Shown piece after piece: positions 1,275 to 6,650 of a DNA stretch of 14,461 bases. The notes below the pieces were generated by a model. That model was not told the DNA's origin, did not search any database, and saw only the letters and a program-made list of their open reading frames with translations. Position 1 is the stretch's first letter. Every line of letters begins with the position of its first letter. The position numbers and the translations under genes are program-made. This DNA comes from an uncultured Dehalococcoidia bacterium (lineage in GTDB: Bacteria > Chloroflexota > Dehalococcoidia > Lucifugimonadales > UBA3495). The DNA is taken from the NCBI GenBank assembly GCA_950072105.1, contig CATMOE010000075.1:1-14461 (forward strand), read 5' to 3'.

Positions 1275-2417
1275 ATGGACCTGGGTCTCAGTGAGGTCCA
1301 GCAAATGCTGAAGAGCAGCGCCCAGGAGTTTCTTTCTCAGGAGTGTCCGCTGACCTTGGTTCGGGCCATGGAGGAAGACCCTATGGGTAATAACGACCAA
1401 CTATGGCGGCAGATAGCCGGCTTGGGTTGGACCGGCGTGGCCTTCCCCGAATCCTACGGCGGTACCGGCGGACACTTTCTGGATCTGGCGGTTCTCTTGG
1501 AAGAGATGGGCCGGGCGCTGTGTCCAAGCCCCTTCTTTTCCACGGTCGTCTTGGGCGGTTTGACCGTCTTGGACGCGGGAAGCGATGCCCAGAAACAGGA
1601 CATCGTAACTAAGATTTGCGACGGTCAGTTGCTGATGACTCTGGCGTTGACCGAGCAAACCGCTACCTACGAGCCGTGGGGAATCGAAACCGTGGCCACT
1701 CGTCAAGGGGACAACTTCGTCATTGACGGTACCAAGTTGTTTGTGCCCGACGCCCACGTGGCCGACCTGTTGCTGGTCGCGGCCCGTACGTCGGACGAAG
1801 CGGACCCGTCTCAGGGAATAACCCTGTTCCTCGTGCCTTCAGGAACCTCCGGGCTTACGGTTACTCAGCTAAGCACCATCTCGGCCGACAGGCAGTGCGA
1901 GGTGATATTGAACCAGGTGTCGGTTCCCGCATCGTCGGTGCTGGGTGAAGTAGACCAAGGATGGCCGGTTTTGCAACGCGCTCTGGAACGAGCCACCGCT
2001 GGCAAGTGCATAGAGATGTTAGGCGGGGCCTCGGCTGTCCTGGATATGACCGTCGAATATGTGAAAGGACGGACCCAATTCGGGCGTCCCATCGGCAGCT
2101 TCCAGGCAGTGCAACATCACTGCGCGAATATGGCCACCGACGTTGAAGGCAGCCGGGTCGTAGCTTACCAGGCGGCCTGGAAGGTGTCGGAAGGAGATCC
2201 CGCCCAGCGTGAGGTTTCAGTGGCGAAAGCATGGGTAAGCGCGGCGTATCAACGAGTTTGCTCCTTGGCCCACCAAACCCACGGAGCTATCGGGTTCACC
2301 AAGGAGCACGATCTGCAGCTATTTACCCGGCGGGCAAAGGTGCAGGAACTGAACTACGGCGATGTTAATTTTCACAAGGACGTGGCTCTGCAGCATATGG
2401 AGCGCCAACTGATCTAG
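1275..2417 (+). CDS. Acyl-CoA dehydrogenase (FadE27/28-like, probable subunit of a heteromeric ACAD)
   Basis: AGGAGG RBS. Motifs GTKLFVPDA, RTQFGRPIGSFQAVQH and HGAIGFTKEHDLQLFTRRAK. Confidence 0.92.
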   Translation: MDLGLSEVQQMLKSSAQEFLSQECPLTLVRAMEEDPMGNNDQLWRQIAGLGWTGVAFPESYGGTGGHFLDLAVLLEEMGRALCPSPFFSTVVLGGLTVLDAGSDAQKQDIVTKICDGQLLMTLALTEQTATYEPWGIETVATRQGDNFVIDGTKLFVPDAHVADLLLVAARTSDEADPSQGITLFLVPSGTSGLTVTQLSTISADRQCEVILNQVSVPASSVLGEVDQGWPVLQRALERATAGKCIEMLGGASAVLDMTVEYVKGRTQFGRPIGSFQAVQHHCANMATDVEGSRVVAYQAAWKVSEGDPAQREVSVAKAWVSAAYQRVCSLAHQTHGAIGFTKEHDLQLFTRRAKVQELNYGDVNFHKDVALQHMERQLI

Positions 2418-2475
2418 CACCGCGCCGGCGCTAACCCGAATCTCCTGCAGCGGCCGATATCGGAGATCAGCCTTA

Positions 2476-2823
2476 ATGAGCACCAGCGAATGTATTTTCT
2501 GCGGTATGGCGCGGGACTCCGGCCATAAAGCTCCCATCTACCGCGACGAGCGGGTTTTTGTTCTTAGGGACATCAACCCAAAGGCCCCGACCCACCTGCT
2601 CATAATCCCCAATATGCACCTGCCGTCACTGGCTTACATCGGCCCCGGTCAGGTCCCAATAATGGGCCACTTATTCGTGGTGGCCGAGGAGATGGCCCGC
2701 CGAGAGGGGGTAACCTTGAGCGGATACCGGCTGGTGTTGAACCAGGGCCCGGATTCGGGGCAGGAGATTGAACACCTTCACTTGCACCTCCTGGGAGGGC
2801 AATCGTTGGGGAATATGGGCTGA
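2476..2823 (+). CDS. Histidine triad (HIT/HinT-like) nucleotide-binding protein
   Basis: N-terminal CIFC, DINPKAPTHLLIIP and the HLHLHLLGG triad. GGAG RBS. Confidence 0.95.
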   Translation: MSTSECIFCGMARDSGHKAPIYRDERVFVLRDINPKAPTHLLIIPNMHLPSLAYIGPGQVPIMGHLFVVAEEMARREGVTLSGYRLVLNQGPDSGQEIEHLHLHLLGGQSLGNMG

Positions 2824-3422
2824 TGGATCCCGCCGCGGTTCAGCGGCGGGTCGATCGATTGCCCGCCGGACTTCAGTCCCACATCTACCGGGTTGTTGAG
2901 ATTGCCCGGGAATTGGCGGTCTGCCACGGTATCGACCAAGAACAGGCAGCCCTGGCGGCATTGGCCCATGATGTGGCCAGAGCCATGACGGATGGTGAAT
3001 TGTTGCGCCGGGCCGCGGGCATGGGACTACCCATCGGGGTGGTTGACCGGCGGGTGCCCATACTTCTTCACGGACCGGTGGGCGCCGAGATCCTCCAACA
3101 AGAAGCCGGACTAACCGACATTTCTATTTATAAGGCCGTGTACTGGCACACCACAGCCAACCCGGACTTGGATGAGTTGGGCAAAGTGGTGTTCATAGCC
3201 GACAAACTGGACCCGGCGAAGATTGACTCCTATCCCTATTTGCCACAGATCCGCCAGATGGCATTCCAGGACATGGACCGGGCGATATTGCATTTTCTAA
3301 CGCGGCAGGCGATGGACCGGCTCAATCGGGGTGAGTTGGTCCACCCGGTGATGGTGGAGACTCGAAACGCCTTGCTGGCAGCTTCTGGGGTGCCCGAGAA
3401 TCCAGCCGGAGCCGTCGAATGA
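2823..3422 (+). CDS. yqeK: HD-domain hydrolase, YqeK-like (symmetrical Ap4A hydrolase family)
   Basis: H...V, AHDVAR, LLHGPVGA, HTT and IADKLDP motifs. TGATG stop/start overlap with the HIT gene. Confidence 0.8.
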   Translation: MDPAAVQRRVDRLPAGLQSHIYRVVEIARELAVCHGIDQEQAALAALAHDVARAMTDGELLRRAAGMGLPIGVVDRRVPILLHGPVGAEILQQEAGLTDISIYKAVYWHTTANPDLDELGKVVFIADKLDPAKIDSYPYLPQIRQMAFQDMDRAILHFLTRQAMDRLNRGELVHPVMVETRNALLAASGVPENPAGAVE

Positions 3423-5973: not shown

Positions 5974-6094
5974 GCTTCTGCTCCTTTCATCTTCTTCTGT
6001 AGGCCGGCCGGCTCAAATCCAGGTGTCCATCGGAATGGATCCCTTTACGCCCTTTCGAGTATCACGGCGGGAGACATCGGGTTACCGTCGGATT

Positions 6095-6108
6095 CGAACA
6101 ACTGTTCG
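6095..6108. promoter_or_regulatory. LexA (SOS/Cheo) box 1
   Basis: CGAAC-AACT-GTTCG; the palindromic arms extend to TTCGAAC/GTTCGAA. Confidence 0.8.
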
Positions 6109-6138
6109 AAATTGCCCCTAAATTGCTCGAAAAACCTA

Positions 6139-6168
6139 TTGACGTCTTGAGAACAGGCGTTCTATAAT
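6139..6168 (+). promoter_or_regulatory. Sigma70-type promoter with LexA box 2 in the spacer
   Basis: TTGACG (6139-6144), 18-nt spacer, TATAAT (6163-6168). AGAAC-AGGC-GTTCT at 6150-6163. Confidence 0.85.
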
Positions 6169-6183
6169 CTGTTTCAGAAATTA

Positions 6184-6195
6184 GAACACATGTTT
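6184..6195. promoter_or_regulatory. LexA box 3 (one mismatch) in the 5' leader
   Basis: GAAC-ACAT-GTTT immediately before the GGGAGG RBS. Confidence 0.7.
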
Positions 6196-6207
6196 GGGAG
6201 GCGGGAA

Positions 6208-6537
6208 ATGTCCAACGCAACAGCGGTCAAAACTATGACGGACCAAGGCCCGGAATACTACCATTACGAAGACACCGGATGCGAAGTTTCGCCGTCCTGC
6301 CTCACCTGCCCATTGCCGCAGTGCAAGTATGACGACCCCGTGTGGTTTCAACGGCACCGCCGGTTGGCCCGGGACTTGAAGGTCTGGAGCACCATGCAAT
6401 CCGAGAGGTTGACGGCGGATGAAGCGGCGCAACGCTTTTCGGTAACGGTGCGGACCATCTTCCGGATCACACGCCGCTGCCGGGACGCCATCATGGAGGC
6501 TGACGGTGAGGAATTACTAGCCCTGGCCGCGGACTAG
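6208..6537 (+). CDS. Uncharacterised Cys4 metal-binding + helix-turn-helix protein, putatively SOS-regulated
   Basis: GGAGG RBS favours ATG 6208 over 6190. Contains CEVSPSCLTCPLPQC and the HTH-like LTADEAAQRFSVTVRTIFRI. Confidence 0.8.
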   Translation: MSNATAVKTMTDQGPEYYHYEDTGCEVSPSCLTCPLPQCKYDDPVWFQRHRRLARDLKVWSTMQSERLTADEAAQRFSVTVRTIFRITRRCRDAIMEADGEELLALAAD

Positions 6538-6558
6538 TTAGTGGTTGCTGCCAGGTGG

Positions 6559-6619
6559 TTCGACAAGCTCACCACGAACGACGCCAGGTGTTCCTACCGT
6601 TCGTCCTGAGCCTGTCGAA
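6559..6619. repeat. REP/REPIN-like inverted repeat between convergent genes
   Basis: TTCGACAAGCTCACCACGAACG (6559-6580) and CGTTCGTCCTGAGCCTGTCGAA (6598-6619) are complementary at 19 of 22 positions, with a 17-nt spacer. Confidence 0.8.
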
Positions 6620-6650
6620 GGGCCGGGTGAGACTGTCTTAGATCGGGGAT

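Follow-up and report, generated by a model that had tools for sequence, protein, structure and literature searches.

Which function can be assigned to a gene that stands behind three LexA-type boxes, and where did it come from? The question is raised by a locus in a 14,461-nucleotide stretch of DNA (hereafter the window) from an uncultured Dehalococcoidia bacterium (assembly GCA_950072105.1, contig CATMOE010000075.1). An earlier note on this DNA had described a promoter with three LexA-type boxes and, behind it, a gene encoding a four-cysteine, helix-turn-helix (Cys4-HTH) protein, and had proposed a second-tier SOS regulator or a damage sensor with a shortened iron-sulphur loop. The boxes, the promoter and the gene were confirmed at their positions (Table 1).

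Table 1. Features of the window around the Cys4-HTH gene
Feature	Position	Strand	Remark
Acyl-CoA dehydrogenase-like, HIT and HD genes	1275..3422	+	In other Dehalococcoidia, landmarks 5' of the intact head cluster; HIT and HD genes at 2476..3422
LexA-type box 1 (perfect GAAC-N4-GTTY)	6096..6107	.	55 bp ahead of box 2
Sigma-70-type promoter TTGACG-18-TATAAT	6139..6168	+	-35 at 6139..6144, spacer 18 bp, -10 at 6163..6168; layout as in the ancestral head-packaging operon promoter
LexA-type box 2 (perfect)	6151..6162	.	Within the -35/-10 spacer, abuts the -10
LexA-type box 3 (GTTT)	6184..6195	.	Immediately 5' of the ribosome site
Open reading frame containing the Cys4-HTH gene	6190..6537	+
Ribosome-binding site GGAGGCG	6197..6203	+
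Cys4-HTH gene, proposed activator	6208..6537	+	109 aa (115 aa if ATG 6190)
C-x5-C-x2-C-x4-C metal-binding module	6280..6324	+	Cys codons at 6280, 6298, 6307 and 6322; four Cys invariant in 135/135 aligned rows
Long helix and HTH, residues 44-97	6337..6498	+	R82 and R86 nearly invariant
Palindromic repeat, REP-like	6555..6625		Directly after the Cys4-HTH stop

The promoter hexamers match the consensus at 11 of 12 positions. ATG 6208 is the likelier start codon, since GGAGG at 6197 precedes it and most homologues are 109 amino acids long. GAAC-N4-GTTC is the LexA box of Gram-positives and Dehalococcoides. The pattern GAAC-N4-GTTY gave five strand-matches in the window versus 0.69 expected, a count reached in 2 of 200 shuffles, and no match was found in the window beyond the three boxes. 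No second cluster of three boxes exists in the genome (4.08 Mb). Counted over all contigs, perfect boxes are no more frequent than versions with other spacer lengths (56 versus 49–94), so the case for LexA-type boxes rests on position and conservation. The palindromic repeat that follows the gene has 83 matches on 41 contigs of the genome.

Conservation was examined in the taxonomic family of the source genome (the host family, 35 genomes) and in relatives. The Cys4-HTH gene is present in 35/35 host-family genomes and 43/60 relatives, with pN/pS values of 0.04–0.21 (six pairs). Among the best 30 host-family loci, GAAC-N4-GTTY occurs in 28, a perfect box in 27 and two or more sites in 27, compared with 0/93 downstream control regions and 0.3% of shuffles. 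The perfect box abuts the -10 in nearly all host-family loci that have one. The upstream box lies at 44 bp (six loci), 55 bp (three loci), 54 or 33 bp, and in 25 loci the downstream box follows box 2 at a distance of 30–36 bp. The values of 33, 44 and 55 bp, seen in the window (6096–6195) and in host-family loci, are close to whole helical turns, and LexA dimers would thus share one DNA face. The two loci without boxes form genus g5, which still has lexA. LexA-type control of the orthologues, an expectation of the earlier note, is thus borne out by their promoters.

The repressor was also searched for. lexA was found in 57/60 genomes, and 27 of 30 lexA promoters of relatives have the same box at up to one mismatch (two of them perfect); the source genome's own lexA is without it, and its recA carries a LexA-type box. 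Two further LexA-type boxes were noted, one ahead of a zinc-ribbon gene and a RuvC-like gene (G000:C49 near 14252; L161:1343-2169), the other in the gap between two divergently oriented genes, ∼600 bp ahead of a DNA polymerase IV-like gene (G000:C94 near 3293; L362). In four marine RNA runs, contigs cover the Cys4-HTH gene and little just upstream. These runs do not demonstrate expression, because they were retrieved with the same stretch, give no strand and cover the convergent neighbour to a similar degree.

The encoded protein falls outside characterised families, as the earlier note had supposed: no family in Pfam, NCBIfam or PHROG scored above cut-off. A profile of the protein matches 2,491 clusters, 736 of them at E up to 1e-10, and these 736 define a large unnamed metal-HTH family. 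One cluster in the Atlas has 50% viral taxa; a search of viral contigs with a close alignment detected no relative. Besides the four cysteines, residues D22, G24, P35, D42, R82 and R86 are nearly invariant in the 135 aligned rows, and the 5-2-4 cysteine spacing is kept in 132/135 homologues. Homologues at loci L103–L105 (family f33) have their four cysteines in a shifted spacing, C-x3-C-x5-C-x4-C. Whether the module holds [4Fe-4S] or Zn is about an even call.

The predicted model (pLDDT 87) combines an irregular Cys module with a long helix and an HTH. Fold searches agree with the model on the HTH: sigma region 4 was the best match (Z up to 7.1), a WhiA chain reached Z 6.3 and none reached Z 8. 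Repressors such as SorC and DeoR were also matched. These HTH resemblances are generic. The whole predicted protein gave no fold match at E 0.001 or Z 8. A separate prediction of the Cys module (pLDDT 73, pTM 0.27) gave none either, a result that does not show a new fold. A complex prediction of the protein with sigma-70 region 4 of the source genome scored 0.00, which is no evidence either way.

The comparison with the iron-sulphur loop (FCL) of EndoIII/MutY did not survive this analysis. In those enzymes the FCL has a basic first loop and accompanies an HhH glycosylase domain. The Cys4-HTH protein likewise has four invariant cysteines with CxxCPL, and LexA-type control would suit a lesion sensor carrying a shortened version of this loop. 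However, 0/135 homologues have the C-x6-C-x2-C-x5-C spacing, their first loop is not basic (mean 0.27 K/R) and Pfam detected no glycosylase domain. We consider such a sensor highly improbable.

The origin of the gene became apparent from its neighbourhood in other genomes. A profile search found it in 137 of 201 Dehalococcoidia genomes, nine of these being weak, HTH-level matches. Across 96 loci of the class (three were left out for altered Cys spacing), a terminase-like gene lies upstream in 37 and a portal gene downstream in 23, in no case among the 30 host-family loci. The full order is small-terminase-like gene, small open reading frame, large terminase, Cys4-HTH gene, SPP1-type portal, scaffold, SU10-type capsid and adaptor, the terminase labels being weak (E 3e-7 and 5e-4). 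Cluster capsid, terminase and portal genes were found in 113, 140 and 126 of the 201 genomes, respectively. The head genes of this parent cluster show vertical, fixed-site inheritance and are mostly single-copy and chromosomal. In a tree of the Cys4-HTH protein, sequences cluster by the taxonomic family of the genome that carries them; 37 of its 77 forks are unresolved.

In several genomes the intact head cluster comes after HIT and HD genes. The same landmarks precede the Cys4-HTH gene in the window, and their order is kept in 4/6 host-family regions and in G039. The cluster capsid and terminase are absent from all 35 host-family genomes, and the portal, looked for in the source genome alone, is absent there. 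At loci L145 and L146 the terminase is decayed and a three-box promoter like that of the window is retained. Intact clusters have a LexA-type box near the operon start in 20/20 further loci, while the gene has its own box inside the head operon in 1 of the 28 top class loci. Because decayed intermediates keep the three-box promoter and intact clusters have a box at the operon start, the promoter in the window is of the cluster type. Of the inherited phage-head cluster, which is deleted here, the Cys4-HTH gene is all that remains, and it has kept a cluster-type promoter. The protein is very probably a LexA-repressed DNA-binding protein of cluster origin. The earlier note stands in part: LexA-type control was supported and the FCL damage sensor was not, and both the phage-head origin and the candidate target element described below had been missed.

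Departures from the single-copy arrangement were also recorded. Extra divergent copies of the Cys4-HTH gene occur at L116–L126 (family f57) and L132–L135 (host family); three f57 copies stand alone, each behind its own perfect box, and the second copies in the host family resemble parts of mobile elements. Six f48 genomes (G079, G179, G161, G196, G118 and G230) and G039 have 3–9 terminase matches each versus one capsid and portal. Clusters without the Cys4-HTH gene, at L244–L248 (f32) and L242–L253 (f31), have promoters in which the LexA box is surrounded by conserved patterns peculiar to them.

A second head module, of HK97 type, lies in two pieces on another contig (G000:C3:15186-18080 and 41500-49423; L159, L160). 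In the host family its capsid was found in 24/35 genomes and its terminase in 27/35. The HK97 protease gene of the source genome has an in-frame stop. A conserved GC-rich hairpin, possibly an attenuator, follows the HK97 terminase promoter in many relatives. This module bears on a different reading, in which the Cys4-HTH protein is a DNA-packaging accessory with small-terminase-like DNA recognition that now serves the HK97 module. The gene does sit between terminase and portal in the parent cluster, the small terminase of G20C was a fold match (Z 5.9), and in G026 and G022 an HK97 head operon lies 4–6 kb downstream of the gene. Yet the cluster already has a small-terminase-like gene, the Cys4-HTH gene is more constant in the host family (35/35) than the HK97 capsid, and HK97 modules occur without the gene, the capsid being present in five genomes that lack it. 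A packaging role is improbable on these grounds. A simple co-occurrence of gene and HK97 module, which was also considered, was rejected on the same counts.

A second element came to light in the promoters of the head genes. Its sequence is TG(A/T/C)CA, it lies 8–9 bp 5' of the -35, and it is characteristic of head operons in genomes with the Cys4-HTH gene. When the criterion was relaxed and tied to the position of the LexA box (one window with the gene and six without had no box), the element was found at 42/48 cluster promoters (33/35 genomes) with the gene versus 5/18 (4/13 genomes) without it, the chance level being 0.11. Both HK97 promoters have TG(A/T)C 13–14 bp before TTGACA; their -10 is weak, and a LexA box is mostly missing. 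With a strict pattern, 26 of 30 loci could be scored for the HK97 protease operon, and the element was found in 20/22 of the host family, 2/2 others and 0/2 that lack the gene; at the HK97 terminase promoter it was found in 21/27 loci of the host family and 1/2 others (29 of 30 loci scored).

Two SOS genes were scored with the same strict pattern, whose frequency in shuffles is 0.003. At lexA the element occurs in 20/22 host-family genomes, 1/4 other genomes with a lone gene, 0/2 of g5, 0/2 with the gene in the cluster and 1/16 with the gene absent; at recA, after one short locus was dropped, the respective figures are 8/8, 2/4, 0/2, 0/2 and 1/16. In the host family, most recA promoters carry the element but lack a LexA-type box even when one mismatch is allowed. 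Absence of the gene was verified by profile search. All these counts come from rules set after the promoters had been viewed, from hand-picked windows and from genomes that are kin and not independent.

Gene and element were also lost together. G161, a single contig, has lost both, while its congeners G079, G179 and G230 keep both; in families f31 and f32 both are gone (element at 0/14 promoters); and in g5, where the gene has no boxes, lexA and recA have no element. There are exceptions in both directions. The element occurs without the gene clearly in G053 and G080, as weak variants in G060 and G131, and at lexA in G044; the head cluster of G053 is decaying, and in the G080 assembly the terminase, like the Cys4-HTH gene, was not found. 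Conversely, G029, G012 and G054 have the gene and a lexA promoter without the element, as do G047 and G048 (one mismatch).

A matrix of the element, trained on relatives, was scanned over the source genome. The top ranks were lexA, both HK97 promoters, an Rv2578c-like radical SAM gene (fourth), two sites without a clear gene and recQ (seventh), with recA 13th; of these, the radical SAM gene and recQ alone had no part in the training. Seven sites scored 23 or more, versus 0–3 in ten shuffles, and 13 reached the score of recA, versus 5–12.

Who reads the element? The Cys4-HTH protein might be a LexA-controlled DNA-binding protein with other targets, and the element might be read by another host regulator or by RNA polymerase itself. 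Three genomes with the element and without the gene (G053, G080 and G044) speak for this, the co-occurrence of gene and element is confounded by kinship, and the element resembles a -35 hexamer; as it overlaps the -35 consensus, a second sigma factor or a polymerase contact could explain it. Against this stand the joint losses within the genus of G161 and in f31 and f32. Candidate binders were not found either: WhiA was missing from the source genome (92% complete) and a WYL-domain protein from five genomes, and both were set aside. We regard another reader as rather unlikely.

If the Cys4-HTH protein does bind the element, the direction of its effect has to be considered. As a repressor it would bring about a delayed shut-off of SOS and head genes, which would fit a site near the -35 and the HTH matches to SorC and DeoR. 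However, the promoters with the element have weak -10 hexamers (most commonly TAGCCT, TAGCGT and TAACCT), while the gene's own strong promoter has the element in just 1 or 2 of 30 loci, and 83/135 members weakly match the phage late-activator profile phrog_836 (E up to 0.01). We give little credence to repression.

Activation is the direction that we favour. On balance, the Cys4-HTH protein is probably a LexA-repressed activator that acts through TG(A/T/C)CA at the head-operon, lexA and recA promoters, and so a predicted second SOS tier. The second-tier regulator of the earlier note has thereby become the best reading, predicted from the conserved boxes and from the element that co-occurs with the gene. 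DNA damage would remove LexA, and the strong promoter of the Cys4-HTH gene would fire. The sigma-region-4-like HTH would then read the GACA-like element, as the HTH of WhiA reads GACAC, and the protein would recruit RNA polymerase at promoters with a weak -10, where the metal module would act as a scaffold or as a contact surface. An activator gene inside its own operon, as in the ancestral cluster, would give positive feedback under LexA. In the host family the arrangement would be a cascade from LexA to activator to target: here the gene is on its own, and the element is found without an accompanying LexA-type box at the HK97 operons and at most recA promoters.

A wider history can be sketched tentatively, and we hold it to be somewhat less probable than not. 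A prophage late-gene activator may have been domesticated with the head cluster early in Dehalococcoidia and have outlived it. In the host family it might now form the activating side of the SOS response. It would be a metal-HTH protein that resembles WhiB/WhiA in one chain and drives recA, lexA and recQ, together with a replacement HK97 capsid system, in a cascade gated by LexA. The usual SOS response is a one-step release from LexA; if true, a LexA-gated, phage-derived activator would be a different SOS wiring in an abundant, uncultured marine lineage. The protein is also a candidate master switch, with a five-base element, for two head systems of Dehalococcoidia that resemble gene transfer agents. 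With a candidate switch and element named, particles might be induced deliberately in cultured members. A literature search, which most subscription papers lay beyond, returned nothing on the Cys4-HTH gene, the element or the cluster.

The proposed system shares features with several known ones. As in the LexA regulon of Gram-positives and Dehalococcoides, the box sequence, its overlap with the promoter and the same box at relatives' lexA and the source genome's recA are found, whereas here the target of the box is itself a predicted regulator. Gene transfer agents with dedicated activators are known, such as RcGTA with GafA. The head genes of the parent cluster resemble them in being chromosomal, mostly single-copy and clustered by family, and differ from RcGTA in having an SPP1-type portal and a SU10-type capsid and adaptor.

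The Mor/C late activators of phage Mu (PF08765; phrog_836, phrog_532) are likewise small HTH proteins tied to virion genes. The best PDB sequence match of the Cys4-HTH protein is 1RR7 (E 0.046), and the fold alignment to it covers 43 columns alone (E 1.6), with just the HTH aligned. PF08765 scores 15.9 bits, under its cut-off of 24.9, with 31/135 members at E up to 0.01, and the Cys4 module replaces the N-terminal domain of Mor. The Mor binding site is a longer dyad, in contrast to the short pentamer of the candidate element.

The WhiB-like (Wbl) family is recognised by C-x(14-30)-C-x2-C-x5-C and G[VI]WGG, each of which was found in 0/135 homologues. According to PMC10243135 (PDB 8DY9), the sigma-4-like HTH of actinobacterial WhiA reads GACAC and acts with a [4Fe-4S] WhiB protein that contacts sigma region 4. 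The likeness to the WhiA/WhiB system extends to the sigma-4-like HTH, a GACA(C) motif 5' of the -35 and a four-cysteine metal module; the differences are a single chain of 109 amino acids, the lack of a homing-endonuclease domain, LexA-type control and a phage-head origin. By analogy, the Cys4-HTH protein, a member of neither family, could combine the roles of WhiA and WhiB in one chain.
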